37,631 bases of DNA, from contig QPGO01000369.1 in NCBI GenBank assembly GCA_008632985.1, positions 1-37,631 of the forward strand, written 5' to 3'. The first letter of the stretch is position 1; every line of letters begins with the position of its first letter. The notes below the pieces were generated by a model. It worked only from the letters and a program-made list of their open reading frames with translations, did no database searches and had not been told where the DNA came from. Below, one piece after another: positions 3,001-32,351 of the stretch. A program made the translations under genes and the position numbers. This stretch comes from Psammoneis japonica (lineage: Eukaryota).

Positions 3001-4245
3001 GCACTGATGAACTGTCATGTCCTGCAGTCGAGATTCACTGGGTGAAGGGACACCAAGACGACATCCTTCCCATTGACTCTCTCTCTCAAGCGGCGAAGTT
3101 GAACATGCGTGCCGACAGACTCGCTGGACAACTCCAAGGTCGATTTGTGGGCGATGCTCTTGCTGCTCCCCGCATGCCTCATTGCCAAGCAAACCTGCTT
3201 CTTCAAGGAGCCACTGTTTCTTCCAAATGCAAGCCAGTTGTCAGATGTCAGGCATCGAGTCCCGCACTGGTTCAGCACATGAAAGAGAAATGTGGTTGGT
3301 CCGACGAAGTGTGCGCATCGATTGACTGGGATGTTCATTCGAAATTGATGTCACGAAACATTCGTCGAAAAGTCAGTGCCATCAAGCTGGTTCAAGATCT
3401 TCTGCCCACCAACAAGATTGCACACAGATGCAATCCGACACGTCCGGACTGTTGCATTCACTGTCAGGACCCCATGGAAGATAGAGACCACATTCTCCAT
3501 TGCCCTCACAATGAAGCCTGGCGCAGAAAATTTTTGCAAGGATCACGCAAGAAGTGCGATGACACTCACACGTCTCCTTCCTTACGAGACTTGATGGTTT
3601 TGGCTGTTGAAGCATGGTTTCGAGGCGAGCTTTTGCACTCGGAACAATTTCATCACAACGTCGTGCCCGCATTTCATTCCCAAGGGGAAACAGGTTGGTG
3701 TCAGTTGTTTGATGGCCGTTTTTCTGTCCAGTGGAATGCGACGCAAACCTCTTGCCTTTCGTCGAGCGGCATTTGTCGGACTCTCTCAGATCAACAGAAA
3801 CGGCTGGATTGGGCTGCAACCATTGGGAATTTCACATGGGAGCAGTGGTGGGACCTCTGGGATGCTCACAATGACGCTGCACACGGACACGATTCGGAAA
3901 CGAGGAAGTCGTCTCAAAGACGAGACGCAGAAGCAGAGGCCAAGGCCATTCATTCTCGTGCAGACGATTGTCTTGCGAGAGACAAGGCGCTCCTCCTTGA
4001 TTCGGCAGAAGAACACCTGTCACACTCCACTCACCGGATTCGAAACTGGTTGGCCATGTTCAAACCAGTCTTTAAATCAAGCATGCGCGAAGCCAAACGT
4101 TTGGCTGCACGAGGCACCAGAACCATCGCAAGTTGTTTTGGCGCGGCATCACCCTTGGGTGACGCCGATCTTGGCCAACCACTGTTTGCTCCTGCCGCAC
4201 TTTTAGTGTGCTGGGGGTGTGGGTTGGCTTGTTGCCGGAGTTGCA
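1..4245 (+). mobile_element. Non-LTR retrotransposon (LINE, RT + RNase H, diatom Ambal-like architecture), 5' part outside the window
   Basis: Long ORF2 with RT, RNase H and a C-terminal Cys/His knuckle. The 3' segment 4190-4245 (ctgccgca...gtgtgctgg..gtgtgggt...gttgc) matches the 3' end of the minus-strand copy at ~6856-6912, which defines the approximate element end. Confidence 0.85.
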
Positions 4246-4295
4246 GGGTGGAAGCGCAGCAGCACTGTAAATGTGGAATTTTGGTTTTGTTTTGA
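51..4295 (+). pseudogene. LINE ORF2 (reverse transcriptase, RNase H, zinc knuckle); open but hypermutated
   Basis: RT motifs IYGTGQGSGNSP and GGHVDDT (normally [YF]VDD). RNase H motifs ASDGS, SSYRAEACG, HCDNSAL, WVKGHQD, NMRADRLA. C-terminal CIHC...DHILHC. Only 4 Tyr in 1414 aa. The true start is upstream of the window, and the native stop was probably near 4140-4200 and lost. Confidence 0.85.
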
Positions 4296-5213: not shown

Positions 5214-6702
5214 AAAATGCCGAGTTGGTTGAACATGAGCAAGGCATCATTTCTGAATGGTTTCAAGACAATGAATGCACAGTCCCAGAAGGAACCGTGA
5301 TTCAGGAAGATGCAACGAATGGTGATGCAGCACAAGATGCAGCCAAGCTGGAAAAAGACGACCTTGCATCTGTGCAACAAAAGGGCCATGGTGATGGCCA
5401 GAAGGCAGAAGAAGGCAAGTCTGAAGAGGGGCAGAAGACATCGTCAGGTGAAGCATTTCAGCCAGGTGAGCAAAGGCGAAATGGAGCCAGCCATGGCCCC
5501 AAATGGCGCTGTCTTCGTTTCTCACGTAAAACCTTTCGAACGCTGTGCAGACAAACAAGACTTGGACAAAATGGACCCAGCACTGGACCCAAATGGCTCA
5601 CCCCGTGCTGGGCAGGACATTTCTGGAAATGTGCAAGACCATGGCTCCTTTCCAGTCCAAGACGATGATGGCGAGATGCAGGGATCACAAGACAGCATTG
5701 AGGATCCCGTTGCATCTCTGAATTCACACAAAGCCTCAGAGGGTGATCAGTCTGAAGCGGCTTCTCAAGAATTTGACAGTGCATCTGAAGAACTGAGTGC
5801 AGCTGGAGAGGAAATCCAGGCGGAAGAGGAAAGCAAAGCTGAAGAGAAATGCCAGAAGGAAGTTGAGCAGGAGGATGCGGAGTCGTCAGGCAACAACGAT
5901 GATGGGAAATGTGGTGACGGCAACAACAGAGCAAGCAGGCAAAAACGGGAGGGAGATCGTCAGAAAAAAAATTCTGACAAGAACGATCGTGACCACGAAG
6001 ACAAAGCCAACAAGCAAAGTGGAACAGAAAAGGTGCGGAAAGAATTGTTCCAGAACAAAGAGCACAACAATGATGGAGACGCGGAAGGACTTCCAAAGGC
6101 AATCGAACAGGACCAAGAGTCTGAAACAGCAAGCATTGTCAGCGACGGATCTGACGCACCAGAGCTCCCTGTCGTCAGCGATCAAAAGGCAGCTGTCGCT
6201 GCCTTGAAGGAAAGGGATCCAGCAATGGCAACCATCGAAACATTTGCCACAGCACAAGAGCGGGCAGAGGGTCGTCTGTTTTTGGAAAAGACGAGACAGG
6301 AAGCCAAAGCCAAGAAGAAAAAAGCAGATTCCGGAAAGAAAAGAAAGACAGAGGGCCTCGCTGCTCCACCAAAGTCAAAAAAAAAGAGGAGGGTCATCGC
6401 CACCACGCCCCGTTCCTCTGCGAGAAATCAGAGCAAGAGAAAGACGGGCTGAAACATCAATTGTGCAAAACCACAATCATTGCATGTGTTGAAATTCGTC
6501 TGTGTTTGTGCACCCGGTGTTTTGGCTGACTTGCCAAAATGACATTGCAGTTGTGGACAGCAAACCAGCGTCCAATCCCAGGGGTCATTGGCAATTCCAG
6601 TTGCAGGTCGAAATGGGTCCAGCGTTGGTCCCAAAATGGCACAGTCTGTCCATCACCCGGCAACCGAAATGGGTCCAGCAAAGGTCCCAAATGGGCAGTC
6701 TG
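5143..6702 (+). repeat. Dispersed ~37-nt motif, 5 copies (approx. GAAATGGRNCCAGCNNTGGNCCCAAA(A)TGGNNCAGTCTG)
   Basis: Copies at 5143-5181, 5478-5514, 5568-5600, 6610-6648 and 6666-6702. Confidence 0.75.
5466..5550 (+). other. Putative spliceosomal intron (85 nt)
   Basis: GTGAG donor, CTCAC at 5521, TGCAG acceptor. Removal joins the 5225 frame to the 5310 frame (G|AC = Asp). Confidence 0.7.
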
Positions 6703-6796
6703 TGCGTCGTGCGTCGCCATTTTATGATTAAAAACATTGACGGATGACGTGCAGACTCTTGCCCCAACCCAAAACCGAACCAAAAAGATGCACATG

Positions 6797-6855
6797 CTAA
6801 CCCTGACCCCAAACCCTGACCCCAACCCCAACCCCAACCCTGACCCTGGCCCCAA
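6797..6855 (-). repeat. Degenerate interstitial telomeric repeat (TTAGGG)n
   Basis: On the + strand: partial CTAA, then 9 hexamers (3 CCCTGA, 5 CCCCAA, 1 CCCTGG). All are transition derivatives of CCCTAA. Confidence 0.8.
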
Positions 6856-7132
6856 GCAACGCCAGCGCCGGCTGACCCACACTTCCAGCACACCCTGCAG
6901 AGGATGCGGCAGAAATTGTGTGTGATTGGCTGGATTTGGCGCCTCCGGAAGGGGGGCGCCTGACGGAGATGGCTGAAGATGGTGCAGGTGCCTCTTTTGG
7001 CCAGGCGTTTGGCTTCTTTCAAGCTTTTTTTGAGTCTTGGGAGGGCCACCGAGATCCAGTTTTGAGCCCTTGTTGCAGAAAATGAACGGCGTTTCTCGAC
7101 TGAATCTAGCAACACTCCCCTGTCTTTTGGGG

Positions 7133-7522
7133 GATGCGCTCCAGGTCCAGGTGGGACCTTGCACCGCTGAGCTGTGACATCGACAGTTTTTTGAGTCTCG
7201 TCGCATGTCGCGCACATGGATTTCTGCTTGATTTTTTTGACATTTTGCGTCATTTTACGGCGCACTTGTTGAGCGATCCGTCCAACAACTTTTGACATTT
7301 TTTGTCACAGCGCGTTTCTACAATGTCTTGAGAACCGCGCAGGGCAGGTGAAGTTGCAAAAACGTCGAGTGGTGAGAGGCACAATTGCACCACAAACTTG
7401 GCCATTTGTTTGACGTTGAAGACAAATGTGTCCATCAATTAAATTCTCGCACTGCAGAGCTCGCATGCAGAATTCCACGGGCCCAATGTCACACGGAGTC
7501 CCACCCAGGGCTGGAACGCGTC
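7133..7522 (-). mobile_element. MITE family A copy (~390 bp, TIR GACGCGTTCCAG.CC.GGGTGGGA)
   Basis: Terminal inverted repeats. The interior is a reverse-complement homologue of 17781-18172. Inserted in the LINE C-terminal coding region. Confidence 0.8.
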
Positions 7523-7830
7523 TGGGATGACTTTCAAAGACTCAACATCGTGTCCGTGAACTGGCTTGCCATGCTCTTCCCACAGCTCCCACCAGCTTCT
7601 CCATGTGCAGGATCCCAGCTGGACCGTCCAATCTGGTGGTTGTTTGTTCTCCTCTTGACATTGATGCAAAATGCCTGAATCATGAAGATGACCGGATTGC
7701 AGGAGGTTCCACACAAGCGAGCATCTGCCGTTGAAGATCTGTTGCCATCCAATGTCTGACTGAGCTCTCCACAACTCCTTGCATTGGCAATCCCCGTTGT
7801 TGAGGTGAGTGATTTCCTCACCAAACCAAG

Positions 7831-8106
7831 TGACAGAAATTGAAGGCAAATGGCAAGAATTCAAACAATGGCTCCTTGCTGCTGTCTAAATGGCAGATGA
7901 GTCTCCGCTCAGAGACCATTGCAGGAGCCGAAAGACGTGCAAGTTGGTGCAATCGGGCCACTGTCATTGTTCTTGTGAGCCTTGTGGCTCGAAAGCAAAC
8001 TGCATTGCGCACGAACGCGCGGAACTAAAGCACACAAAACTGTGCGCGGCAAACTAAACAGCGCGTGACATTTCGCGTGCACCTGAATCCTGTTCAAATC
8101 CTGTCA
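7831..8106 (-). repeat. 3' LTR of copia element
   Basis: 276 bp, TG...CA ends, ungapped alignment to 14655-14930 with 27 transition differences. Confidence 0.95.
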
Positions 8107-11100
8107 CTCCCCAGCTTGCTTGAGGAGTCACAGAAACAGATTCTACTTCGGATGGAATGAAGTTCCAGAACATGAGGGGGCGGAGAAGGTCCCAGATTTG
8201 GGAGCAACCCCAATGCTTGCTGAGAATGTCAGCAGGATTGCGGGAGCCTTCGATGAAGTGGAGCTCAAGGCAGCCAGAGGCAATTGCCTCACGCACACGG
8301 TGGAACGACAGTGCGGTGTGTCGCTTGTGTAACTTGGAGTGCGGGATGGTGGCACTGTCTACAACCGACTTGTTGTCACCGAACATGCAACTGACATTGC
8401 GGATCGGGACGCCGAGGTGGTGCAGGGTGATGCGCAGGTCGACAATCTGCTCAACACAAGTCCTTGCGGCAACAAATTCAGACCCATGGGTCGCAGTCTC
8501 CACGGTGGCTTGCTTCTTAGAGAACCAATCAGCTGGAAATTTGTTGAGGAAGTGGAGCATTCCCATGACAGAGCGTCCGGTGAGCATGCAATGGCACAAG
8601 TTTGCATCGACGCAGTGGGTGGCAGTGACGAACTTGCCAAGGGGTGGTGGAGCGTCCTTCGGGATCATCTCTTCTGCTTCGCCGCACATGGAATGCATCC
8701 ATTCATGGGCCGGAGCAGGGAGATCCGAATGGTCGGGCTCTTCCGTTCGAACGCGGAGAGCGCCGTGTCGCATCTTGGAGAGGCACCCACAGACGCATTT
8801 GGCACGATCCAAGTGACCTTGACGGGGCGCAGCTCGGAAGCTAGAGAGTGACATGACGGCTGTGGCAATGTCAATTCAACCAAGAGACACTGCCCATTGG
8901 AGTGAACCAACAAGGGACTGGAACTTGTGAATGCCATCGGGCGCCAGCAGTTCGGAAGTGTCCAGCTCGGGGTGGTCACCCTTCTCCAGAGGTGACAGGG
9001 CGTTGGTGGCAGGTTTCTCCCCAAACAGTCGGGTGCAGCTGTCAACCATGCGCTCGATGTACTTGTGCGGAGACAGGCACAAAGTGCCGTCGGGATCTCG
9101 GGAAAAGTCGCAACCCAGATGGAACTCAATGGGTCCCGCACCCTTGAGCTTGAAGTTGTGCTTTTCCGTGAGAGTGTCGACGAAAGATTGAGGGCCCTTC
9201 ATGGCAATGGCGAGGTCATCCACATAAACGGCAATGTGTTCATGGTGGTCGCCGTTCCTGCGCATCCAAATGTCGGGTTCTGCGCGGCAGGGGAAGAAGC
9301 CTTCAGCTCGTGGGCAGTCGGCGAAGCGCTCGTGCCAGCGGAGACCGGAGCTGCGCAGTCCACACAGGGCCTTGTGGATGACAAGGATGTGTCCTTCGAG
9401 TTTGCCAAATTCAGGTCCGGCTGCAATGTAAAGCTGCTCCTTGGTGGCGGCTTCAAGGTGGGCATTGCCAATGTCGGTGGCCCATGTCTCCAACTCATTG
9501 AGCTCGGCCAGGAAAATCATCAGCCGAAGGCCACGGAGGGAGACCACTCCGGAGTGGACACTGTCGACAGGTGCGTCCGTGAGGTGCCCATCGGCTGCGA
9601 GTCGTGCCTTGTGGTGACCGTCGTGTTTCACGTCATGCACCAGGTGCACTCGGATCTTCTTGTGTCCCGCAGGAGGAGTGGAAGACTCGAAGGGCCCGCA
9701 GTCATGGAAGACTTCGCATTCGTCGAGTTGGCCCATCTCGAGATTAGTTGCGTCTCCCCATTTGTGGTTGCCGTTGCGTTCGTCCAGTGACATGGCGTGT
9801 TTGCAGTTCCGGGGAACTTCGCATCCGTGCTTGCAGCGAGGTGCAGTGCGGAAGGAGCGAAGCTTGGCTTGGTTGGCCATGCGAAATGGCTTCTTTTGGC
9901 GCCTCGCGATGGTGCGGAACCGCTTCCAGCCATCCGTGTCGAGAAGTCCATTCTCTCGTGCATAGATGGCGCAGGTGACGGGGTCGTCCTTGGCGATGAT
10001 GGCAAGAGGCTCGGACGTGATCTCCCCACTTTCCCATTCAAGCATGATGTTGTAGCTTGAGCCTTTCCAGGTTGGGTCGTGAGGCTTCAGAGGTCCTTCG
10101 TGTGACACGATGCGTCGAAATTTCCAAACAGCAGTGTCTTCATCTTCTTGCTCAATGTGATTCATGATGTCGTTGCAGGCAAGGACTTCCTCGCATTCGT
10201 TGTTGTTGACAGAGCAGACGAACCAAGTGAGCTTGGGATTGCCGTTCACTTTCCATTCGTGGTCTTCAACGGCCTTGACGATGCGAGCTCTGTGGCATTG
10301 TCCGTCCTCTTGTGGCTGCATGAGGAAGGTGCGTCCGATGATGTCTTGCGGATCGAAAACTGGCATCTTGGGTGTCCTGATCTCCCCATCAGGAGAATCG
10401 ACGGGGTTGTCGTCATGGCGAGATTTGATGATGGGTTCAGGTGGCTCCCCATCAGGAGGATCAAGACGCAGGTTTCGAACGGCAGGATCGGTGGTGGCGG
10501 AGCGTACGTTGGACCAGTGGAGGACCTTCTGAGTCTCGTCAGAGAGAATCTTGAAGGTCATCTGGTGGCCGACATGCTCAGCAATGCCAACAAAGCTTCC
10601 ACGCAACTCATGGGATTTGGACGGCCAATCGGAGTCATCGAGGTGGAAGCACACGGGTTCCCACCAGTGAAAGCGAAGCAATGGGCTGATGTCCGGGGTG
10701 GAGCCAGTGAGAGTCTCGAGGGGCATGCGCCAGTGGAGATGTGGGGATGCTGTGTGGTTGAGCATGAAGCACACATGCATCAGCACCAGCAGCCATGTGT
10801 GGGCGGGCGAACCAAAACGATCCATGACAGTGTTTGCCATGCGCTTCACGGTCTGGTGTCGACGCTCGGCAAAGTTTTGGTGTTGCTGGTGAGGCTCACT
10901 TTGCCAGCTGGAGATGAAGAGGGCTCGTAGGATCCCGAGCACCTTGTTGCTGATCTCAACTTGAGCACGGTCGCTGATGAGTTTGGAGGGGGCACCACAC
11001 TCACGGATCTGATCCTCGAGTGTGTTGACAAACTCCTTGTCCGTCTTGGTGCCGCAGACGTCAGTGACGGTAGACTTGGTGCCAACAAACAGTTGGGCAC

Positions 11101-13717
11101 TGGTGCAACCAGAGTCGACAGCCGGGGTGTTGGCACAAACGGTGTCAGTGGCAACAGGCTTGTTGCGGCGGTGCACATTAAGGGCGGGGTTGGGTGATTT
11201 GCAGGCCTTCCTAAGGTGTGCACCGGCGGGCATGCGGGCGCACTGCGTGGTGCAGTCAAAAGTACGATGGACCGCATCGGCAGGCAGGAAGCCAAAGCAA
11301 GGTCGAAGAGACTCAAAGGGGGGGTCCTTGGGCTGCACAGTGCGCTCCGGGGGCGGAACGTCGGCGTCCTTGGGGTCAATCGCGTGTGGATGACACTCGT
11401 AGAACACGTCGTTGTTCGGAATGAGATGATCATCGAGGGCGGACGCATGATCGGCAGACAAGGAGGCGGACATGATGGTCTCGTTGACAACGACACGATG
11501 ACGGCAGTTGCCGCATTCGTCAAATGGGTTGGCAGTGGGATCGTCCTGCAGGTCAGAGATCGCGTCGCACCACTGGTCGTCGTCAGTGACAGAGTGATCG
11601 AGGGCGGAAGGATCCCATGTGTCATCACCGGTGAGGATGACATGGGGCAGGGTGTCCCATTCGGCATCAGTGTGAGGTCGCATGGCAACATGAGGCAGGC
11701 CGCCCTTGATGTCAATGGGGATGACATGGCCATCAGGAGTGGCAATGCATTGCAAGCCGTTGGGCACCTTGACAGAGCGATTGTTGACATCCTGTTTGTG
11801 CCATTCGAGCTGGCCGCAGGAGTGGATGGTCTTGCCCGTGCATGCGTGCTGATGGAGGATGGCGATGACGGGACCACGCTGGGTCTCAATGACAGCACCG
11901 GCGGTGACAACAGGGATGTCCACCAATTGATGGTCGTCAATGCCCTGAACGTCGACTTGGCGAGAGGTGCGTGCAATGACGCGAATGTCGTCGCCAGCAA
12001 TGCCGCCGTTGGCCCCACGATCAACTAGAGCGCCAGTGCGTGTGGAGCGATGAGCAGAGGCAGAGCAAATGACATTGTGGTCATTGACGCGGCGGCAAGT
12101 GCGGCCGTTAAGTTCTGTGTCATCGGTGGGAGCTGGCGGAGTGGAGGGATCGGTGGATGGCCCCGGTCGACCAGCATTGGGGGCTTGGTTAGGAGACTGC
12201 AGGTGTTGCAGATCACCGGGTGGCAGCGGCTTGCGCTTGGTGAGGTGCGCCAGGATGGGATTGTCCGAAGTGGCACCCACATTTGGAGCGGGTTCACCAG
12301 AGTCAGCAGGAGTCGTGTGGGACAAGTTGACATCACCATCACTCCCAAGGCGTTGGTCGTGAAGGTTGGCCGTAACGGACTCATGGTGGTTGCTCGCTCG
12401 CGGGTTGCGGGGAGGTGGGCAAGAATGCTCAAGGATGATCACCTTGGAGGAATGGGGCAACGAATCCCAAATCCGTTGGTGGTCGGGAGGGAGACGTTTC
12501 CATTGGTCACCGGTGAGGCTGGGACCACGGGTGCAGGCAGCATCAGCCTGAAGGACGTCAATGTCGCTGTCGATGTCGCAGAACACATCATCGGACGGTT
12601 CGTCGGAGTGGACATCGTGTGCGTGTGTGGCACGTCGGGGAGCTCGAGGTGTCGTCTTGGGTTGAAACGCACTGTCGCATTGAGCTGCCGTGGAGAGGAG
12701 CAAGCCACAGCATTGATCGCATGTGAGGCTCTTGCCACTCTGCGCACGATGCTGATCAGCTTGGTTCTTGACAGCACGGAGTTCCTCGACAGGGTGTGCG
12801 GCATTCTCGAGCATGACATGCTTCTGTCCTTCAGAGAAGTGGTCACTGGCCGGGATGAGTGCCTCGCACTTGCGCAACTGATCTTGCCAATGAAGGATGA
12901 ACCCGTGGGTCGGACCTTTCCAAGTGCCATCACCAAGACGTGAGGTGGTGAGGTGCGTGAGCAAGGTGGAGGACTCGACAGATGCGTGGGTGGAGGCAAG
13001 CGCATGCTCAGACAAGGCGCGGCAGACGGTCTGGGCGTCGGAAGACCCCACATTTTCGTGGATGAGAGCCTTGCCCTTGTCGGTGAGAAGGATGCGTTCG
13101 AAGACGGCGAACATGTGCTTTTGCTGTTCAGCAAAGAGCAGTTTGTCTTCGGGGCTGGTCGGTTTGTACGACGAGTCTAGAGTGCACTCGACATCTTGGG
13201 CACGGGCTTGTGCCACAAGTGAGGTGTGCCAAGTGTGCCACTGCTTGTTGGATTTGAGAGCCGTGAAAGCGGTGGGATCACGCTTGATGCCTCGCTTGAA
13301 GTCCCGCACCGGGTCGCGTGCCTTGGTCGGGTTGGTGACATGCGGAGGTGCAAGGGGTGAGCTGCCGATGGACACAGAGGACATGCAGTCGGGGCTGAGA
13401 CAGCAGGCAAGGAACTCGTCATGTGTGAACAACGAGGAGTCATTGGCAACATCAAGACCTTTGTGTGCTTTGACAATGTGCAGACCAACTAGAGCTGCTA
13501 ACATGTTCTTACAACCGTGGGGCAAAGGGATCACATTGGTGCCGTTGTTGTGCTCAAGCGAGTCGATTTGGGACGGCATGAACGTGAACAGTTCTTGATG
13601 CGAGTCCGCGCCGTCTTGGGCCAAAGCCAAATGAAGAGGGCTCCCAGCACCTTGGGCAAGCACGGTTCCAACAATGTGCTCGAAACCATTGGTTTGTTGC
13701 TGACGAGTGAGAACCAT
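8054..13717 (-). pseudogene. Copia gag-pol polyprotein with one in-frame nonsense codon
   Basis: Protease LVDRGANGG; integrase ISDRAQVE and SEPHQQHQNFAERR; RT HKARLAADG and YVDD; RNase H CVDANL, ATHGSEF, GDNKSVV, NPADILSK. ORFs 8876-13747 and 8054-8854 share a frame and are separated by TGA at 8876-8878, where Arg (CGA) is expected (SLG-R-IDI). 7 Tyr in the 1623-aa ORF. Confidence 0.9.
8107..8119 (-). other. Polypurine tract of copia element
   Basis: GCAAGCTGGGGAG on the minus strand, immediately before the 3' LTR. Confidence 0.7.
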
Positions 13718-14654
13718 GGCAGACAAAAGTGGTGTCAGGACAAGCAATTCCTGCTGGGAAGCGAAGGTAGACTTGAAACTTGGGTGAGAATGGACTTGAC
13801 TTGAAATGGACTTGACTTGAAATCTTGAACTGTCTTGAAGTCAGAAGTCGCCGGGCTGTGCCATCCCGTTCGTTGTTGAGTGCTAAACTTCCCATCCGGT
13901 CCACAGAGTTGTGCCGGCACGTCCAAACCCGCAGCCAGCGGCGCTTTGGGTTGCTTACGAGTGGAGTGGCGGGTTGTAAACCCCTGCAGGCAAGCTGACC
14001 AGAGGTGGACAAGACCCCCGAACCGTTCTTGTTTTATGTCGGTTGGATTTCCCGATCAGGCTGGCCAGTTGACGAAGGCGTTGGGCGCCGTGGACGAACG
14101 AACAAACGCGGGAAAGCACCCTCGCCCCAACGTAGGCTGCAATCACGGCCACTTGCTCTCACAGTCGTCCTCGTGGACCTGGCAGAGCTGCAGAGCACCA
14201 GCAGTCCGGGGCAGATCAGGTGCAATGGACTCGGCATGCTTGCAGGGTGGCAGCAAAACCGCAGTCCGAAGAGTGGGTGCAAGTTCTTGGCCGTGAAGAT
14301 GTGCACATGTGCGTGTGTCTTCAGCAACGAAGATGCTTGAACATGTGGGGTTCTTGACCATTGGCCGATGAATGGGCACATCAAGGGATGAGGATCAAGG
14401 GTGGACTTGGACATGACCGTTGATGTGTGTCTTCAGCGATCAAAGGCAGTGTGATCAATCCAGACATCCAGCGGTGAGGAGATTTGACGGTGACGTTAAA
14501 TTCCTGCCGATGCCTGGCATTGAATGCGCGCAGACTTGCCGATGTGTGTAGAATGCATGCAGAGGTCCATGCAGAATTGAAGTGGCGTCGTCAGCAAATC
14601 AACGATGACGATGGCGGTTGCTCAATGGGTTGACAATGAGCAAGACTGTTGGTC

Positions 14655-14930
14655 TGACAGAAATTGAAGGCAAGTGGCAAGAATTCAAACAACAACTCCT
14701 TGCTGCTGTCTAAATGGCAGATGAGTCTCTGCTCAGAGACCGTCACAGGAGCCGAAAGATGTGCAAGTCGGTGTGATTGGGCTGCTGTCATCATTCTTGT
14801 GAGCCTTGTGGCTCGAAAGCAAACTACATCACGCGCGAACGTGCGGAACTAAAGCACACAAAACTGTGCGCGGCAAACTAAACAGCACGCGACATTTCGC
14901 GCGCACCCAAATCCTGTTCAAATCCTGTCA
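14655..14930 (-). repeat. 5' LTR of copia element
   Basis: 276 bp, pairs with 7831-8106, followed by TSD CCAAG. Confidence 0.95.
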
Positions 14931-17780
14931 CCAAGCCTGCAGCACATCCAATGAAAAGTCACAAAGAACAGGCATTGTGTCTGCCTTGTTGCAGCATCTG
15001 TGCAGACCTTGCAAGAATTTCCTCCTCCACTGTTTGTCATTGGGACATCGAAGAATGTGGCCCCTGTCTTCCATCAGATGATCGCACGCAATGCGCTGGT
15101 GAGGACGAACTGGATTGCATCTGTGAGCAATTTTGTTCATGTGGGTGGTGGCAAGTCATGCACCAGCTTTGCCGCATTGATGTGTTTCTTTGAATGGCAC
15201 TTCACCAGGATTGCACGGGCATTCCAATCGACTTGCTCCATCACTGAAGGGGTCCATTGGCTGCATTCAATGATGCAGTCGATCAATTGGGGGGCGGTGG
15301 CTGCATGTCTGATCTGTTTCTTGTGGCTCGATGTTGCAGTGCCTCCCTCTGTTTCGAGGTGAGAGTTGCAATGAGGCAGATGCTTGACTTGTCACACAGG
15401 CAGTGACCCTGACATGCTCCTGCCAATCTGTCAGCGCGGATGTTGACTCTGGCGTTTGTGGGCAAGGCATGGACTGGAGAATGCCTGCCTTGATGTCCTT
15501 TCACCCATGAGACTGGAGGGAGAACAAGATCCTCTGAATCCAAAAGCTGCTTCAGAGTTTGCTGGGTGTGAAGAATTTTGTTCAGAACGTCCCAATCTGG
15601 AGCAATGGCATTGGCGCCATTGCAGCGAACATGAAAATTGTGTGGAGCGTGAGCTTCTTCGTCTGGGTCAATCGCTGGTGGGGCAGATGTCAACCGGGAA
15701 AGACCGTCGACCAAAGCCTTGTTGTCACAATGAATTGCCGCGTCCAAAGGAACCGAAATCCAACAACATTCACACAATCAAAAAATGAACCGTGCAATTG
15801 AAAGGATGCCACAGGCCTCTGCGCGATGCGAAGATGGCATCTTTCCAAAAATGGGTCCTGCGCAATTCACTGATGGTGCGCCGTCTGAGGCAATCGTCCA
15901 TCCGAAGGTGGCTCCCTCCCCAGCTGACCCGTCACTGCCTGTGGTGAGAGTTGCAGGTGGGCAACTCCTCTTGAGTGCTTCAACAGTTGTTGAAGTTGGG
16001 CCACTCCTTGTTCAACATCAAGCGATCGAAAACCTCCGCCTCCCAATGACTGTGGTCTGTAGAGAATGAGCCTTTTGGTGTTTCTGTTGTGACCACATTT
16101 GGCAAAAATCGTCCGCATGGCCTTTTGTTGTGCCTGTTGGAGCTCTTTTGGAAGAAAATTTGAGCCAGCCAGAACACATGTCATCAAGGAGAGGTGACAA
16201 GCGTGGCAATGTTTCCATGTTTCTGTCCTGTCCAGTGGGCACAACCTGAGAAACAAGGAGACAGCATTGCTCTTGTGTTGGAGTTTCTTCAACTGAGTTT
16301 TCTGTGCACCGATTGGAGTCATGCAGTGTCCCAGGGTTTTGTGAGGTGTGTGTGCTGACAATTGCTGGCTGCACCTGGAAGTGGTTTGGTCAGTGGAAAA
16401 GATCTCCACCTCAATGTTGTCATGACAGGGTCACATGTGCGGTTCTCCACACTCTGTAAAGTCCCATTCTGTGGCATGGAAGGAACACTTCAGCAACTCA
16501 AGTTCATGTCCTGCTGTGTCCAACAAGTCACACCACAGCCGGTTGTCCGATTGGAGAGACTGGGACAACTTGAGCGCGGAGGGCTGAGGACTGGCTCTGA
16601 AATCGTTCACCTGCTTGGAAGTGTCATCAACATGACCCCTGTTGCATGCTTGGATGTAGAACTGTCCGTCCAGAGTTTTGAACAACAAACCAACAGCTTC
16701 AGCATCAAAGATGTCAAACAGTCCACTGCGCAGAGTGTTCCAGCACCAAGGAGAATTTCCGCTGCCTTGTCCTGTTCCGCACAACGGGAACTCAGAGGAA
16801 TGGGAACAACTTTTTTGGGCGATTCCTGACAGAGTGCACAGCCAATGACATGCATGATGTGACATCGCCACATTGACTTTGATCACTCTCTCGTGCATGC
16901 CATCACTCTTTGCACACAAACCCACTGTTGCTGGGATGTTCCTGTCACAGCAAGAAGTGCAGTCATCATCACTGGTGAGCAAAGTTTTCCGGGTAGCACG
17001 TGACATTTCCAGCATCAAGTTTTTGAGAAACACAGGCGTTTGGGCGGAAAGGAAGGAGCAACATCTGTAAATCCCTGGGTTGTGCATTCAGTGGTGATCC
17101 ACATGCTGGGCTAATTTGCGCCACTTGACGCTTGCAATCAGTTGGAAATCTGCCTCGTAGATGTGAATCACGCACAATCGGTGCATTTTGTTGTTGCCTG
17201 GTTCTTTGAAGATCGTTGCATTCACAGTGTCTTTCCATTGTTTGCGTGAGCAACCCCACCTTAAAGCGCAGTTGATCAGGTTAAGTTGCATTGCCACAAG
17301 GGATTGCTGGACCAAGTCCAACAATTCTTTCTGCTCGGATGGATTCCTGTCATTGTCACAATCATTTGCATGGGAATGTGGAGCGCACAGGGCCTTCCAG
17401 TGTCCCAGACAAATCCCTGACTTCAATGAAGCAGATGTTGACTCTGACCACAATTTTGTCTTCAAGTGGAGAGCCTCAGGAGTGAGAGAATTTGGAGCTG
17501 TTGGTGGTGTCCTTCTTCGAAGATGCTGTGTCAGCAGCAAAGTGGCGCGGTTCAGGTGTCCAGTTTCATGTTCTCTGTCTAGGATTAAATTGGCCATGAC
17601 AGTGTCTCCTTCACATCCAAGGTCAACAAACAAGGGTGGGACAGTGAGAGGAGTGCCACGTGCCTGTCCGAAGTGTCGTTGGTTTTTTTGCAGTGCTGGA
17701 GCGCAGATTCAATGTTGTCTGGGGCATCTGTCATCACCCAATTCTCGCACGTTTTGGGGTTGTCTCGGGGGTCTTCAGGT

Positions 17781-18172
17781 GACGGGTTCCAGTCCTGGGC
17801 GGGACTCCATGTGACATTGGGCCCGCAGAATTCTGTGTGCGAGCTCCGCAGTGCAAGAATTTAATCCACGGATGTGCTCACATCTTCAACATCAAACAAA
17901 CGGCCAAGTTTGTGGTGCAATTGTGCCTCTTGCCACTCGACATTTTTGCAAATGTGCCTGCCCTGCGCGATTCTTAAGACATTGTAGAATCGCGCTGCAA
18001 CAAAAAATGTCAAAAGTTGTTGGACGGATCGCTCAACAAGTGCACCACAAAATGACACAAAATTTCACAAAAGTCTCGTACAATTCTGCGTGCGCGACAT
18101 GCGGTGCGATCCAAAAAACTGTCGATGTCACAGTTCAGTGGTGCAAGGTCCCACCCAGAGCTGGGACGCGTC
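17781..18172 (+). mobile_element. MITE family A copy (~392 bp)
   Basis: GACGGGTTCCAGTCCTGGGCGGGA ... TCCCACCCAGAGCTGGGACGCGTC. Flanks AGGT/AGGG. Inserted in LINE ORF2. Confidence 0.8.
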
Positions 18173-21890: not shown

Positions 21891-22286
21891 GATGCGTTCC
21901 AGACCCAGGTGGGAATCCGTGTGACATTGGGCCCACAGAATTCCACGTGCGAGCTCCGCAGCAAAAGCACATGGCAATGAAAGTGTCAATGATCGCCAAC
22001 AGAAAATGAGGCAATTTTGCAAACGCACAAACTTGCCCATGATTGAAGCACATCGTTTTTTACTTGGCCAGTTGCATTCTTCAGACATTGAAGAATGCAA
22101 CTGGCGCGTCATTGTTTCTGTGAATTTGTTGTGTGAAATGTCTGGGGCTTTGCAAAACAGCAAGTCTGGACAATTTTTTTTAAACATCACACGCAGAAAT
22201 GCACGTGCAAAACATGCGATGGATGACAAAAATTGTTTGTGTCACACATCAGTGCTGCGAGCTCCCACCTGGGGCTGGAACGCGTC
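21891..22286 (+). mobile_element. MITE family A-related copy (396 bp) with perfect 4-bp TSD
   Basis: GATGCGTTCCAGACCCAGGTGGGA ... TCCCACCTGGGGCTGGAACGCGTC, flanked by CAAC/CAAC. Confidence 0.85.
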
Positions 22287-24087: not shown

Positions 24088-26809
24088 AAGACTGGCCACA
24101 CAGAAAGGTGCTGACAGAGCTCGAAATGGCTCGCATGGTCGATTTTGAGGTGTGGATGCCAATCGAAAGCTCTTGATCTCAGCTCTTCAGCGATGTGTGT
24201 GTCAATGGCTGGCAATGCTTCCTTGACATTTTGTCAGCCACAAACCAAATTAACGGCTTGAATTGTTTGCTGTGAGTGTTTTGACCGTTGAGGAATTGCG
24301 CGAAATGACATGCCAAGAAAGTCACGCACACAAGTTGTGCAAAAGCACATGATTTTTAAGATTGTGCAAGTCTGCACAAATTGTCAAGCACTTGACATGA
24401 GGCTCAAATTTGAAATTCTCTTGGTGGAGGCAACAAGAGCAAAAGCAAAAGCGTCACAAAAAAAATGGCGCGGCCGAAACTGACCAAAGGCGTCAAGGAC
24501 GATGAGGCAGCAGAAAAGTTCTGCGATTGGCTTTCTGACCCCAACGAGTCTCCCATTTTCCATGAACATTGTGCCCAGGTGACTGCAAAGAAACCTGCGA
24601 AATGTCAGTGTCTGCAGAAGCCAAGAGTGATGTTGGAGAACAATGACACCTCCGTCGTGAAAATGTTGAGCAACTGCCTCGTGTGCTTTGAAAGACTGGG
24701 GTGCACAGAAACACATGCTGCTTTTACATCCTGGATCAAATGTTCTGCTTTCATTCAGAAGCATGCATGCAAGGGTGATTGTCGCTGCTTTGTTTTGCCG
24801 CTGTTGAAAACTGACGACAATGACGAGGAGGAGGCGGAGGAGGGGATGCCGCCGGACGATCATCTGGTCTGCCATGGTGCCCTCCTTGCATTGCTGGGCA
24901 AAGGGAGAAAGTTCTGGAGAACCGCCAAGTTGAGTGCAAAGAGCAACATCTTTCCGAAACATGGTCTCAAAGGGAAGACTGGGCAGAACGCGAACAAGAC
25001 GCTTGTGCCCGAAATGTTTGCAGCCCTTCACGCACATTTTGATGACATGAAGGAACTTTCTGAGCCACGTGCAACGAGACTGGTTAGAGAAGAGACAGGT
25101 GTCGGCTTGAGAGATGAAGACACACACGACTTGCCTCCCACCGTGAAAAAGCGTGGATTGTGCAAACGGCGCAGACAAGAAAATGGTTGGACCCTCAAAT
25201 CGAACCACAAAGGCAAGTTTCTTAAGGCGGAACCAATCGAAGGAGAAGACCAGCAACCAATGTGCTCCTGGGCACAATTTTGCAAGTTCTGGAAAAAGAG
25301 CTGTCCTGAAATTGTCGTGAGAAGGCCCACTCGTGACATCTGCGATGAATGCTGCAAGTTCGCAAATGGCTTCAGGATGAAAGCGATGAAAGAAAAGACG
25401 GGGGGTGAGAGCAACGACGACGAGGATGAGGAGGAGGAGAGCGATGATGATGAAGAAGATGGAGCAGATGCAGAGGTGAGAATGAAAGAGATTGAAGAAC
25501 AGGAAAATGAAATGTTGCATGCCACAAAGCACGTCGAGTGGGCTCGAAAGCAACGGACACTCGTGCAACAGCACATTTCGGAAGCGACAGAACACGCAAA
25601 AGCCGACAAGGCACATGGCGAGCGAACTTGCGCAAGGATTGGTGGCTGTTGTCAAAATGGCGGGCTTCCACATTTTGGGGCGGATCAGCCAGGGGAGACG
25701 CACTGCTTCTCTCCTTTGACAATCAATGTGTTTGGGGTTGCCGATCCTGCGGGGAAAAAAGTTGTGACGGTGACGGAAGATGAGTTCAAGGATTTTTTGC
25801 ATGCACGCGTCTGCCATGAGGGTGCTGGCCAAAAGGGAGGTGACAATGTTGCTTCCCTTGTGATGAAGCACTTGCATGATGGTGGATTGTTGGACATCAG
25901 TGAGGGTCCAGGCGGAAAGCTCACATTGATTTTTGACAACTGCATCGGGCAAAACAAAAACAACACGGCATTGAGACTTGCTTCTTGCCTGGTGGAACAA
26001 GGATGTTTCAAAGAAGTGAGCATCATTTTTTTGATGAAAGGGCACACCAAGAATGCCTGTGACAGGCTCTTCAACAGCCTCAAGCAAACTTGCCGTGACA
26101 AGAACATCGGCACGTTCTGCAAACTCTTGACAGCCTTGGACACCTCCGAATGCGTTCAGGTCGTTGAAGCGAAGGAGGAGGATTTTGTGGGGTGTGGAGC
26201 GCATTTTGACCAACATTGCAAGAAGTGCAGCGCAGCTGTGAAGCACCACTGCTTTGAAGTGACAGACTCTTCGGAACCCACGGCAGCAACAATGAAAGCA
26301 GCGGACGGTGAGCCAGAAGTTGCCGAGGATCTCAAGAAGAGGAAGACAGAATCGAGCGAGCAACGAAAACAGAACTTGCAAACGTCACAACCACTTGCCT
26401 TGACAGCTCCAGGCATCAAGGACATCAAGAAGGTCGAGCTTTGTGCCAAGCATCAGCCGCTTCTTGACAAGGCAGACCAAGACGAGATGTGCCCTCATCC
26501 TGGAGACGACGTCCTCAATCGCGTTGCGAAAAGCAAGAGAGAGAAGCGGAAGAACAAGCAGGCGGAGAGCGCTGAGCAGATGGCGCGAAATGAGAAAAAG
26601 AAAACCGCCAAAGCCAGTGCAGTTCTTTCGGAGAGGGACACAAATAAAAATTAATGGCAGTCCTTGTGTACACACAAATTTTATGTGATGTTTTATGTTG
26701 ACACTTTAATTGTTTGACATCGCTCAAAAATCTTGTAAGTGCCATTTTCTCGAAACAAATTTTGAGAGCTCGAGAGCGCGCGTTAGCACCTTTTTATGTG
26801 GCCAGTCTT
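24088..26809 (+). mobile_element. Sola1-like DNA transposon, 2722 bp, 28-bp TIRs, 4-bp TSD
   Basis: Left TIR AAGACTGGCCACACAGAAAGGTGCTGAC (24088-24115). Right TIR reverse complement AAGACTGGCCACATAAAAAGGTGCTAAC (26782-26809). TSD AAGC (24084-24087) / AAGT (26810-26813). Single transposase ORF. Confidence 0.85.
24465..26654 (+). pseudogene. DDD-type transposase (Sola1-like), open 729-aa frame, hypermutated
   Basis: PTRDICDEC; IGGCCQN...LPHFGADQPGETHCFSPL (expected D-Y-x-QN...ETYYFSPL); FDNCIGQNKNN; FLMKGHTKNACDRLF. No Tyr in 729 aa, and the first catalytic Asp appears to be Gly. Superfamily assigned from motif recall. Confidence 0.8.
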
Positions 26810-26860
26810 AAGTAATCATAAGTTATCATAGAGTCATCACAAGTCATCATAAGTCATCAC
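26810..26860 (+). repeat. 10-bp satellite, TpA-retaining copies
   Basis: aagtaatcat aagttatcat agagtcatcac aagtcatcat aagtcatcac. Confidence 0.8.
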
Positions 26861-27280
26861 CAGCCCCAACGACTTAAAACATAAAAGGTGTTCTTTGCCA
26901 AACAAGACTAAATTCAACGGATAACCGTTACGAACTACAAATCACGCAGGCCAAAATTTCCGTTGTAGTTGTATGAATACGCATGACTTATAAAAATTCG
27001 CGGACGGTGCGGTGCAGCATAAATCTAATGCTGTAAACGGAATGACCGTTCATATGAAATATTCATTCATTTATGACCATGACCAAGTTCTATGTTCCAT
27101 GTTGCACGTACAGTACAATCTACGTCTCTCAGAACATACAAAATGCCAGCCATCAATGACCTCATTTTTTACATCCGATTTCTCCTGGTAGAAACGGCGT
27201 GAAGCCCATAAAAACAACATCACCTTTCTCCTCTCATCGTGTCTTCTTGATCCAACTTTTGATCTTATTCAAGCAAAACG

Positions 27281-30116
27281 ATGCTCCCCCGTGTCTTTGC
27301 CTTTGCCTTGTTGCTAGGGTCGGCAGCGGCAAACAATAAGGACGCCGTTCCGCTCTTCAGCTCCCGAATGCCGGCACCCTCGAAGGCCTCTCCGTATCAC
27401 GTCCCAGGACACGTCGACCAGATTCGCTTGAATCGAGGAAGTCTCAACGCCGCTACTATCCTCGTTGATCTCTTTGAAGATGGCAGTGCCCCCTTGACTC
27501 TTCGCCAGGACCGCACCGTAATTGGCAAGCGCGGCGAACACACCTGGATGGGTCAGGTCGTCGGCTTTCCTAATAGTGTGGCCTCCTTTAGCTTCCACAA
27601 AGGAGCAATTTCCGGTTCCATCGTTTACGGCGTCTCTGAGATATTCGAGATTTCGTCGGAACAGGGTGGAACGGCAATCTTTGCGCAGATTGACGAAGAC
27701 AAGCTTCCTCCAACGAAGGAACTGTTCCCGCCCGCTTCTCGCAGGCTCCTCCGTGGAGCAACCGACGGAGACACCATCAGCGAGCAGACCAGTCTTGACA
27801 CTTCGGATTCACACCGGAGGGAGCAAGTCACCTCTGGAAACACAGTACAAGACATTATGGTGGTATACACGCCAGCCAGCCGAACCAGGTATGGTGGCAT
27901 CGCGGGAATTGAAGCTAAGATCGTGGAAGCCATCCAACTTGCAAACCAAGGCTATATCAACAGTCAAATCAACCTCGAGCTGAATCTTGTGTACATGTAT
28001 GAGGTAGGCTATACAGAAACAGGTGACATGGGTCTCACTCTCAGTCGCTTGAGAACTCCCGGCGATGGCTTTATGGATGAAGTGCACTCCGTTAGGGATC
28101 AATATGGTGCAGATCTTGTCGCCATGATATCGGAAGACAATAACTATTGTGGAATTGCTTATGTCATGACGAGTGATAGCTCAGACTTTGCTCCTTATGC
28201 CTTCAGCGTGACATTTTCAAGTTGCATTTCCGGATTGACCTTCACCCACGAAATCGGCCACAATCAAGGTACGTTCATTATTTTTCCATTGTCTCATTCT
28301 CTCCCATTTTCTCATCCCGTTTTCATTGCTTCATTTATAAATAAGGTTCTACCCATAACATCGAAAACGGGGGAAGTGCCGCATATCCTTATTCCTACGG
28401 TTACCGTGTATGTAACGATGGCAGTCTCCCTCCCCCCTACTTTCGCACTATCATGGCCTACGGCTGCACCGGGGCAACTCGCCAGAATTTGTTTTCCAGT
28501 CCTAACCTTACCTACGAAGGCGCGGTAGCTGGTACCGAAACTGCCAACAATGCTGAAAGCATCCGCAACACCATGGCCATCACGNCGCGTTTCGAGCTTC
28601 GGTGACTGTTCCCGCCCCGAATGCACCTTCGAACTTGGAGGCCACCACCGTCGGCGCAAACGAAATTTTAATTTCCTGGCAAGATAACTCCTCCAATGAA
28701 GAGACCTTCAGGCTGGAGCGATACATTGGTCAGGGTCCATGGGAGGAAATTGAGTCTCTTGCAAGTGATGTCACCTCTTTCAGCGACATTACAGCGCCAT
28801 GGACGACCAACTCTTACCGTGTTCGTGCCGTCAATGGCGGTGGTTCCTCTGAATATTCAAACGTTGGCCAAGCAACACTTACAGCGCCGACAATGGGCTC
28901 TGTGACGGCAGCGGCCCTTTCTGGAAGTGAAATTCGGCTAAATTGGGGGGAAATTGATGGAGCGGACTCCTATGTTGTTGAGAGGTTGAGTGGAGGAAGC
29001 TGGCAGGTCTCTGAAACGACGTTCACGGACACTGATCTCCAGTTGGCAACGGAGTACTCCTACAACGTTACAGCTCAAAAAGGACTAAGCTCTACAAGCC
29101 CATCGCCCACCGTGTCTGCCACAACGAGTGATAATGTTGAAGTGTTCCCTTCGACCGAGACCAACAGTTTTGGAACGGTGACTGGTTCTCTCGCGCGCCT
29201 TGATGCCGCAGATGGCAATGCTGAATCCATCCGTGAAGAAGAATCTAGTGGCAATCCTAGTCGCCGTATTTCCCGATTGTCTCATGAATGGTATTTCACC
29301 CTTCCAAACGGATGGGATCATGCCACCGTAACTGCCACAGCGTGGCACCAAGGCGAAGAAGCTTTCAATTTTGACGTCTCCCTGGATGGAGGAAACAGCT
29401 TTTCAAGATTGTTTGTCGTAAACACAATTCCGCAAGCACCTACACGAAACTTATTTCGGGGTCTGGTGTCAGCGATGTAAGAGTGCGAGTACTTGATGCT
29501 AATCGTGTCCAGGGAGAGCGGACTCTTGACACTGTCTACGTTGACCAGCTTTTCATCAAGGCTTTCGTGAGTACTGGCGGTGGCAGTCCACCATCAGCTC
29601 CGTCCAACTTGGTGGCAGTGGCACCAGAGAGCACCGAAGTGCAGCTCACCTGGAACGACAACTCTATAGATGAGTTGGGTTTTGAAGTTGAACGTAGCGA
29701 GGATGGTGGAACGACCTGGGTCCCCAGCGCCACGACCGTGACCGCTTCTTCGGTGGACTTTGACGTTTTGCCTTCCGCTACGTATGACTATCGCGTGAGA
29801 GCCTACAATACAGCTGGAAATTCTGCATGGTCCAACGTTGCCCCAGGTAGTTGTCCCCGCCCCACCTACAGGAGGCCCAATTACCCTGAATATCACGACC
29901 CGCAAGGAAAAAGGATTCAACGTCTGTGACTTAACTTTCTCTGGTGCTACCACAAGCAATGTTGAAATCTATCGAAATAGTGCATTGGTCACAACCACCC
30001 AAAATGATGGATTTTACATGGACAACACTGGCCAAAAAGGAGGCGCGAGCTACGTTTACACAGTGTGTGATGCGGGTGGTTCGACCTGTTCACCTGACGT
30101 GACCGTGGTCTTTTGA
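27281..30116 (+). CDS. Secreted metzincin zinc metalloprotease (reprolysin-like M12B / peptidyl-Asp M72-like) with fibronectin type III repeats and bacterial-type C-terminal domains
   Basis: Signal peptide MLPRVFAFALLLGSAAA. Splicing of intron 28269-28345 gives HEIGHNQGSTH (HExxHxxGxxH), then YSYGY and Met-turn FRTIMAYGC. FN3 repeats (APSNL...WQDNSSNE...YRVRAVN). Apparent frameshifts at ~28585 (next to an N), ~29425 and ~29843 (C-run) are probably assembly errors. Normal Tyr and TpA content. Confidence 0.85.
28269..28345 (+). other. Spliceosomal intron (77 nt) splitting the zinc-binding motif
   Basis: GTACGT donor, pyrimidine-rich body, AAG acceptor. Phase 1 (G|GT = Gly) and it completes HExxHxxGxxH. 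Confidence 0.9.
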
Positions 30117-30528
30117 AGAAACTACATCCCACGCGTTCCATTTAAAGTTCTATAGGCATAGAAAACTGGCAGTTCATTGCCTCTCCTGGAGCCTACTAAT
30201 GACGAAAAAGTACCTTGTCAATGTGTCCGCCTCTTCTCTCACGTCGTTTGGCATAGGGTTGGTGCTAAGTAGGACCTGTGTGCTCTCTAGCCAGCTAAAA
30301 GAGAGCAGTCTGTCCGTCCGCATTCTTGATTGATCGGCCATGGACAAGTGATGGCCTGCTCGTCGGCTCGAGCTCGGCTTCTCACTAAATCGTTGGCTTT
30401 CCCGTTGAGCATGTTGAAGGTGTTTACGTAAAATTGTTCATAGCCCCTGGTGTGTTGGGAGCACTGTGACTGAATGTGCTGTGTGGCACATGGAAGGAGG
30501 AGTCCCCACTCACAAAACAGAGCAACAA

Positions 30529-32261: not shown

Positions 32262-32351
32262 GGGACACTTCCATTCCACATGCACGACACCATGATTGTC
32301 GCAAAAGGGACACTTCCATTCCACATGCACGACACCATGATTGTCGCAAAA
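32262..32351 (+). repeat. Perfect 45-bp tandem duplication inside the old copia RNase H
   Basis: gggacacttccattccacatgcacgacaccatgattgtcgcaaaa x2, followed by gacactt microhomology. Confidence 0.9.

Follow-up and report, generated by a model that had tools for sequence, protein, structure and literature searches.

In a 37,631-nucleotide stretch of DNA from the eukaryote Psammoneis japonica (NCBI GenBank assembly GCA_008632985.1, contig QPGO01000369.1, positions 1 to 37,631 of the forward strand; hereafter the window), a Ty1/copia retrotransposon carries two long terminal repeats (LTRs) that differ at about one position in ten. We interpret the element as a young insertion whose LTRs were changed in place by two superimposed processes at the level of DNA, namely the conversion of the dinucleotide TpA to TpG or CpA and the decay of CpG, and we assign this reading a probability of about 0.8. 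The dominant process would be a transition from A:T to G:C at TpA, a self-complementary dinucleotide, striking either strand equally and each copy independently, and LTRs changed on opposite strands at one and the same TpA would then read TG in one and CA in the other. The second process would be CpG to TpG/CpA decay, presumably by deamination of 5-methylcytosine in silenced repeats. The comparisons described here demonstrate that TA was the ancestral state, and that the changes took place in DNA after insertion, symmetrically on both strands, in a context-dependent manner and within restricted regions.

The element is read from the minus strand of the window, and its parts are as follows.

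7826..7830, no strand: left copy of the target-site duplication (TSD), CCAAG, equal to the 5 bases after the right LTR.
7831..8106, minus strand: left LTR, 276 bp, the element's 3' LTR, with TG...CA termini, from the repeat search and direct comparison.
8054..13840, minus strand: polyprotein frame of 1928 codons with RVT_2 at residues 1390-1601, from the list of open reading frames, Pfam and the homolog alignment.
8107..8120, minus strand: purine-rich run, polypurine-tract-like, adjoining the 3' LTR on the element strand, read from the flank sequence.
14655..14930, minus strand: right LTR, 276 bp, the element's 5' LTR, from the repeat search and direct comparison.
14931..14935, no strand: right copy of the TSD, CCAAG, equal to the 5 bases before the left LTR.

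A direct repeat search of this region returned a single pair, 7831-8107 and 14655-14931, at 90% identity; the 277th matching base is due to chance, and the true LTR, which runs from TGACAG to CTGTCA, is 276 bp long. Between the LTRs, the minus strand contains a stop-free frame of 1654 codons, then a TGA at 8876-8878, and then 273 more codons in the same frame. This in-frame TGA stands where all five homologs compared (5/5) have Arg, and the whole 1928-codon frame is colinear with its homologs, at 52-56% identity, without a frameshift. Pfam identifies the copia-type reverse transcriptase RVT_2 in the polyprotein (E 4.4e-23), located within the last third of the frame with about 330 codons behind it, which is compatible with the copia order but no proof of it. 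When an integrase was looked for, RVT_2 was the only Pfam match, as it also was in the unmutated homologs P0002 and P0007. The polyprotein has 1345 homologs at E <= 0.001, and PF07727 is present in 120 of the 120 listed. With direct LTRs bounded by TG...CA, a 5-bp TSD and RVT_2, the element is a structurally intact Ty1/copia retrotransposon that was inserted once.

An ungapped comparison of the LTRs reveals differences at 27 of 276 positions, all of them transitions (27/27), with no gaps. Fourteen of the differences make up seven reciprocal dinucleotides, TG in one LTR and CA in the other, at LTR positions 39-40, 90-91, 120-121, 129-130, 138-139, 176-177 and 254-255. At position 172, TG faces TA. 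Ten differences are of CG versus TG or CA (76, 88, 106, 115, 124, 181, 188, 233, 236 and 248), and the remaining two are A/G at positions 20 and 41. The recount agrees with the first-pass annotation, which had reported 27 transition-only differences without indels and, at the same positions, the seven reciprocal sites and position 172; its further claim that the changes postdate insertion is borne out by the intact TSD and by states that are reciprocal between the LTRs. Random placement of 27 transitions gave at least seven reciprocal TG/CA sites in none of 200,000 trials for each LTR (0/400,000 in total), with a maximum of five. The differences are also strongly concentrated, as 25 of the 27 fall within the 144 positions belonging to a CG, TG, CA or TA dinucleotide in either LTR, and only 2 of the 132 non-hotspot positions differ (1.5%), as against 9.8% overall; the Kimura two-parameter distance between the LTRs is 0.109. 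Double changes from TAA to TGG are found at LTR 39-41 and beside the right LTR, and the TpA common to both LTRs number three, all within CTAAA. Nevertheless, a reciprocal TG/CA site requires one change in each LTR whether its ancestor was CG or TA, and the LTR pair alone therefore leaves the ancestor undecided.

The direction of change can be read from the polyprotein. Seventy homologs (those among the 120 best that reach 1600 aa, taken by id up to the 70th) were aligned for a test of Tyr and Arg columns, a Tyr column being one with Tyr in at least 70% of them. Tyr makes up 0.4% of the window polyprotein (P0001) versus 3.9% (range 3.0-5.0) in the 120 best homologs, with His at 6.0 versus 3.5%, Cys at 3.0 versus 1.0% and Arg at 5.4 versus 6.0%. 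At 40 conserved Tyr columns the element has Cys 15 times, His 14, Tyr 6, Phe 4, Trp once and Ser never, and the Cys and His codons at these former Tyr columns are TGY and CAY. Leaving out Phe and Trp, TpA conversion in the polyprotein amounts to 29/35 (83%). The near-equal numbers of Cys and His support the earlier claim that both strands were affected. Arg, in contrast, is retained at 41 of 50 conserved columns (Cys 3, His 3, Trp 1, Thr 1, Ser 1), with CGN codons in 40 of the 41, while Arg CGN has become TGY, CAY or TGG in 7/47. A change from Tyr to Arg was seen at none of the 40 conserved Tyr columns, hence double conversion of TA to CG must be rare. The single steps inferred over 103 changed conserved columns comprise 18 of A>G in T-A-N and 17 of T>C in N-T-A, together with CpG G>A 11, CpG C>T 3 and non-TA A>G 5.

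Related loci from metagenomes served as controls, and the eleven tested keep Tyr. Where the relative P0002 has Tyr, the window element reads Cys 26, His 22 and Tyr 7 times, whereas ten other related metagenome loci keep Tyr at 21-47 of these positions, with His 0-3 and Cys 0-1 each; locus L001, which is P0002's own contig, has Tyr at 72/72. The mean TpA odds ratio of 78 related metagenome loci is 0.74 (minimum 0.35) versus 0.12 in the window element. Locus L064 exhibits pure CpG decay, with Arg changed to Cys 12 times and to His 12 times and Tyr kept at 29 positions, and this loss of Arg with Tyr intact means that the column method separates CpG decay from the TpA process. Locus L047, which has the lowest TpA ratio (0.35), was considered as a second case of TpA conversion and rejected, as it keeps Tyr at 23 positions with His at 3 and Cys at 0. 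An LTR-like pair of 537 bp was also noted in L001; its two copies are separated by 19 transitions and a single transversion and show no reciprocal TG/CA.

Other genomic copies of the element provide ancestral states for some LTR sites. Contigs of four runs (X1-X4) of one sample were aligned to the window at 80% likeness, and the states in other copies were drawn from 40 of the 771 variant rows. The element family is very abundant, since 15,637 X1 contigs match at this likeness; an exact 34-base word of the LTR had 0 matches in metagenome contigs, and no same-organism copies of the polyprotein were found in the protein collection, the best identity being 68% among proteins of near length and 71% among shorter ones. 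At reciprocal site 129-130, T129 accounts for 74% and A130 for 54% of X1 depth, so that at least 28% must be TA, and in X4 the site reads TA in 24.5 of 35.1 depth. LTR 118-119 is TA in 62% of other-copy depth and TG in both window LTRs, and LTR 171-172 is TA in another copy. LTR 135-136, which reads TG in other copies and CA in both window LTRs, is an instance of the predicted same-direction class, in which both LTRs changed alike. As a side observation, the original LTR may have possessed a TATA-like word at 7947-7953 (LTR 117-123), lost in both copies, judging by the TA at 118-119 and the reciprocal site 120-121.

The TA origin proposed in the first-pass annotation is thus supported by the Tyr columns and by TA at 129-130 in other copies, as well as by a telomere-like array and a TpA odds ratio of 0.13 over the window, both described below. 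The annotation had also suggested that the ancestor of the reciprocal sites be read from other copies, a comparison that came out divided, since 129-130 reads TA in line with its proposal and 176-177 reads CG in one contig, against it.

CpG decay nevertheless has a substantial share in the LTR differences. At positions 115, 236 and 248, C makes up 105,372/111,484, 98,306/99,148 and 101,956/103,488 of X1 depth (95-99%), and the presence of C in nearly all other copies identifies these CG-versus-TG differences as ordinary CpG decay. The ten single differences, and probably reciprocal site 176-177, belong to this process. About 15-17 of the 27 differences are attributed to the TpA process (six reciprocal sites together with 172, 41 and perhaps 20) and 10-12 to CpG decay. 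Of the earlier description of a young element that some dedicated process had made about 10% divergent, the youth of the element and the process itself were upheld; not all of the divergence belongs to that process, as 10 of the 27 differences are CG versus TG/CA. If CpG decay were the only source, 1.14 reciprocal sites would be expected (11 shared and 10 single-hit CpG, q 0.31) versus the 7 seen (P = 1.8e-4), while about six to seven are expected from the TpA process, given 83% conversion and approximately 17-20 ancestral TpA in 276 bp at 50% GC.

The background divergence of the LTRs is at most 1.5%, and both differences behind this figure possibly stem from the same A>G process. Such a background makes the element young, and LTR dating, which the first-pass annotation rightly expected to overestimate its age (9.8% overall versus 1.5%, or 2/132, at non-hotspot positions), would do so about six-fold or more.

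TpA loss extends over most of the window. The dinucleotide odds ratios of the whole window are 0.13 for TpA, 1.55 for both TpG and CpA, and 0.65 for CpG, and a single stretch, referred to here as the island, departs from this pattern, with a TpA odds ratio of 0.62 inside versus 0.07 and 0.04 outside, and CpG at 0.93 inside versus 0.25-0.71 outside. The features that bear on the reach of the process are the following.

6797..6856, plus strand: interstitial telomere-like array of 10 CCCTAA-type units; at the place of TA, one unit has TA, four have TG and five have CA.
7133..7522, plus strand: left arm, about 390 bp, of an inverted repeat whose partner is 17781-18172, the pair enclosing the copia element.
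17781..18172, minus strand: right arm of the same inverted repeat, partner of 7133..7522.
24414..26654, plus strand: DUF7869 open frame of 746 aa, in a repeat unrelated to the copia element, with 0 Tyr.
26645..30441, plus strand: TA-normal island with a Reprolysin-like and fn3 gene, TpA 0.62 and CpG 0.93, the sole part of the window spared TpA loss.

The repeats outside the copia element carry the same changes. The DUF7869 frame has 0 Tyr versus 3.64% in 47 homologs (those among ids P0250-P0310 that reach 600 aa); at 8 Tyr columns it reads Cys 6, His 1 and Gly 1, while Arg is kept at 10/10. The copia element is nested inside another repeat with inverted arms, 7133-7522 and 17781-18172, which differ by 49 transitions and 13 transversions and include 10 reciprocal CA/TG dinucleotides, and reciprocal CA/TG sites were found in all nine (9/9) in-window repeat pairs tested. 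An intact CCCTAA unit is present in another genomic copy of the telomere-like array. The TpA process would accordingly have acted alike on the copia element, the DUF7869 element, the inverted repeats and the telomere-like array.

The transition into the island, which spans 3.8 kb, is abrupt. No TA occurs from 25223 to 26645, after which there is one per approximately 10-15 bp, and the last dense TA lies at 30441; TpA loss thus ends within 250 bp or less at the island borders. The island edges meet repeat edges, that is, the end of the DUF7869 frame at 26652-26654 on one side and the start of a repeat at 30555 on the other. Within the island, the gene has 3.3% and 2.3% Tyr in its two frames, and its non-coding flanks are the most TA-dense, with 19 and 14 TA per 250 bp at 26751-27250. 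The named relatives of this gene are all proteins of bacterial metagenome-assembled genomes (MAGs), at 46-48% identity at best, and the island may have been acquired horizontally, or may represent a pseudogene or an assembly join.

Loss of TpA also reshapes the reading frames. TAA and TAG occur at 3.8 and 2.6 per kb versus 43.9 for TGA, and 34 frames of at least 100 codons are found in 7.8 kb, with long open frames on all six frames because TAA and TAG have vanished.

Several further observations concern the remainder of the window. The stop codon of the DUF7869 frame itself retains TA at 26652, and this frame has 2196 relatives in a representative library. The surroundings of the telomere-like array (6700-6963) are themselves repeated in the genome, with a summed depth of approximately 2256. 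The island gene is split into two frames, 27263-28528 and 28557-29480, around the only N of the window, at 28585. The 1430-codon open frame at 3-4295, for which Pfam gave no match, probably belongs to a further degraded element, and its segment 447-1358 recurs in inverted orientation at 16326-17237 (64% identity). The right end, 30501-37631, has odds ratios of 0.25 for CpG, 0.04 for TpA, 1.92 for TpG and 1.80 for CpA, and looks like older repeats in which both processes are further advanced. One repeat is present in three diverged direct copies (68-80% identity), at 21896-22286, 30555-30926 and 35229-36132, one of which forms the right border of the island, and tandem repeats of 64 bp and 45 bp occupy 36726-36915 and 32262-32352, respectively. 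Rfam gave no match anywhere in the 37.6-kb window.

The TpA process has a distinct sequence preference. At second codon positions, A>G changes depend on the 5' neighbour, amounting to 15/40 after T, 5/63 after A, 0/43 after C and 1/84 after G. The TpA that survive outside the island are most often in TTAA (29), CTAA/TTAG (29), GTAA/TTAC (26) and CTAC/GTAG (24), and most rarely in ATAT (0), ATAC/GTAT (1) and ATAG/CTAT (2). ATA/TAT contexts are thus the most vulnerable, and TTAA and CTAA are relatively refractory. Along the polyprotein, Cys and His outcomes are mixed in order, without the long strand runs of a processive single-strand enzyme, although the sample is small.

A number of points weigh against a repeat-directed TpA process as proposed here. 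The contrast on which repeat targeting is based comes from one TA-normal island in a 37.6-kb window, and the gene in that island has bacterial MAG relatives and an undepleted CpG of 0.93, and could be a recent arrival or an assembly join. TA was seen directly at one of the seven reciprocal sites (129-130), among 40 of the 771 variant rows, and reciprocal site 176-177 reads CG in one other contig. The three surviving TpA shared by the LTRs, in CTAAA, fit a model of independent hits poorly unless context matters. Lys to Arg changes (4/42) are also a common natural replacement, which leaves a preference for changing an A that follows A with weak support. Finally, X1-X4 are one sample and may be the window's own assembly data, which makes them no independent proof against a sequencing artefact.

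The main open rival, though unlikely, is a genome-wide mutation bias against TpA, under which selection would preserve TA in functional genes, and the island would have arrived recently by horizontal transfer or be an assembly chimera. It would account for an island that is the sole TA-normal stretch in 37.6 kb, has bacterial relatives, shows CpG at 0.93 versus 0.25-0.71, and contains the only N of the window. It is harder to reconcile with the non-coding flanks of the island gene, which are the most TA-dense part, or with two island edges that both meet repeat edges; moreover, a conversion of about 83% at TpA against 1.5% elsewhere would weigh heavily on all Tyr codons of the proteome.

Error-prone patch repair, in which T:G mismatches from 5-methylcytosine deamination recruit a polymerase-eta-like enzyme that miscopies at WA, is very unlikely. 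The repeats that have lost TpA do also show CpG decay, TAA to TGG double changes are present, and the neighbour order T, A, C/G resembles the WA hotspot of somatic hypermutation. A polymerase-eta-like enzyme, however, produces a large share of transversions at A, whereas the LTRs show 27/27 transitions and the Tyr columns read Cys 15 and His 14 versus Phe 4 and Ser 0. In addition, TpA loss (about 83%) lies far above CpG loss (15-31%), the opposite of what is expected of a by-product.

CpG decay alone, with methylated CpG deaminated on opposite strands in the two LTRs to give the reciprocal sites, is highly improbable as a full account, even though it is a real component. The ten CG versus TG/CA differences, the CG majority in other copies at 115, 236 and 248, CG at site 176-177 in one other contig, and the change of Arg CGN to Cys, His or Trp in 7/47 all testify to it, and L064 displays its pure form. 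It falls short on the number of reciprocal sites (1.14 expected versus 7) and on TA in at least 28% of depth at 129-130, and it fails on the Tyr to Cys/His changes in 29/40 columns with Arg kept in 41/50, on TpA ratios of 0.04-0.13, and on the telomere-like array.

Editing of RNA before integration, in which ADAR-like A-to-I changes were fixed by reverse transcription and the LTR differences arose later through gene conversion, has scarcely any credibility left. The 5' preference for A>G after T over A over C/G and the strand symmetry seen in the element resemble those of ADAR, and the copy number is very high. The two LTRs, however, start out identical from single templates and yet differ reciprocally with the TSD intact, while the DUF7869 element, the inverted repeats and the telomere-like array share the changes, and the island borders are a property of the chromosome rather than of a transcript. 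As the cause of the LTR differences and of the changes in non-retro repeats, RNA editing is excluded.

A sequencing or assembly artefact, by which a modified base at repeat TpA is misread as TG or CA, is no more credible. X1-X4 may be the assembly's own data, and thymine modifications at TpA are on record for some protists; symmetric misreading would, however, give strand conflicts and a mix with CG, yet Tyr to Arg is 0/40. Furthermore, 44% of the sampled 31-mers of the window occur in X1, 2,764 aligned contigs are at least 99% alike, and the copies differ discretely among TA, TG and CA. APOBEC-type editing, with strand-biased G to A changes in GG/GA context, is ruled out by changes that are A>G (18) and T>C (17) at TpA.

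In-place conversion of TpA would then call for an agent. From the sequence patterns, we infer that bases are converted by an enzyme whose target is repeated or heterochromatic DNA, which would be a functional mirror of repeat-induced point mutation (RIP) in fungi. We see an even chance that this eukaryote possesses an undescribed genome-defence mutator, one that recognises repeated or silenced DNA and, through a DNA adenine deaminase or a thymine oxidase, turns A:T into G:C at TpA on either strand, almost to saturation while an insertion is still young. As to the chemistry, deamination of adenine to hypoxanthine, which is read as G, by a deaminase that prefers a preceding T and works on either strand may be the best fit, as it would give pure transitions, and is put forward tentatively. 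Oxidation or hypermodification of thymine at TpA to a base of the 5-hydroxymethyl- or 5-formyluracil type that mispairs with G is a possible but more doubtful candidate, and other causes together take up the rest of the probability. Because TpA is self-complementary, the deaminase and thymine oxidation are inseparable by sequence.

If the process is real, repeat-directed hypermutation would have evolved more than once, with the same logic and opposite chemistry, and there would be a natural enzyme that turns A:T into G:C in the double-stranded DNA of chromosomes under a simple rule of sequence context, which could be searched for directly. Such a mutator would wipe out Tyr codons, TATA-like motifs and TAA/TAG stops, leaving GC-enriched, TA-free repeats. 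There are also practical consequences. Dating by LTR divergence fails in such genomes (9.8% apparent versus at most 1.5% background here); the length of an open reading frame is no evidence for a gene in TpA-depleted DNA, where only TGA stops are left; and homology-based repeat annotation loses Tyr-containing motifs, while RIP indices read inverted.

To our knowledge, no repeat-directed point mutator of cellular genomes other than RIP has been established, and RIP acts by deaminating cytosine. It requires a cytosine methyltransferase of the RID/DIM-2 type and takes place at a premeiotic stage, and its customary index thresholds are approximately 0.89 for TpA/ApT and 1.03 for (CpA+TpG)/(ApC+GpT). 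RIP is described as C:G to T:A change, mostly at CpA (PMC2621366, PMC7296669). The process in the window shares with RIP an in-place, post-insertion change of DNA that consists of transitions only, is dinucleotide-specific, acts on both strands and affects all repeat classes, with sharp borders at the one island in the window, inactivated coding capacity and inflated LTR divergence. Unlike RIP, which makes TpA, lowers GC and creates stops, it destroys TpA, raises GC and removes TAA and TAG. Every RIP index is inverted, with TpA/ApT at 0.125 in the element and 0.074 outside the island versus 0.68 in the island, and (CpA+TpG)/(ApC+GpT) at 1.46, 1.68 and 1.18, respectively, and an enzyme like a cytosine methyltransferase cannot perform A:T to G:C. 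Membership in RIP was rejected since the direction is reversed, TAY having become TGY or CAY at 29/40 columns and TA being the lost state.

Other known systems resemble the process in part. E. coli very-short-patch repair, which depletes CTAG in favour of CCAG/CTGG, likewise biases TA words into CA/TG words; it is, however, a slow, genome-wide process of bacteria that is bound to a single methylase motif, whereas the process described here is apparently repeat-restricted, is near-saturating and leaves CTAG relatively spared. Base J, found by kinetoplastid telomeres and in further repeats of these organisms, and 5-hydroxymethyluracil, which dinoflagellates carry at TpA/TpC, offer a parallel in repeat-associated enzymatic action on T at TpA, on both strands and in TTAGGG-type repeats, although we know of no case in which either is mutagenic on such a scale. 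ADAR hyper-edits repeat RNA and acts on DNA:RNA hybrids, with a 5' preference of U/T over A over C/G and a 3' preference for G. The process here resembles it in changing A to G, in the order of 5' neighbours (T, A, C/G) and in affecting both strands of a duplex, and differs in that the substrate is chromosomal DNA after insertion, including non-retro elements, and in a 3' context of TAT/ATA rather than G. CpG decay of methylated transposons, too, produces TG and CA from YpR on either strand and forms a second layer here, yet it does not bring about Tyr to Cys/His changes, TpA loss or the changes in the telomere-like array, and it explains about one in seven reciprocal sites. CpG/TCG hypermutation has been reported for basidiomycetes (PMC5381629). 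No account of repeats hypermutated from TpA to TpG/CpA was found in the open literature that was accessible; subscription journals lay outside the search, and this is no proof of absence. The process seen in this window follows a RIP-like logic with opposite polarity and would be a variant of repeat-directed hypermutation that stands outside RIP, CpG decay, ADAR and APOBEC.

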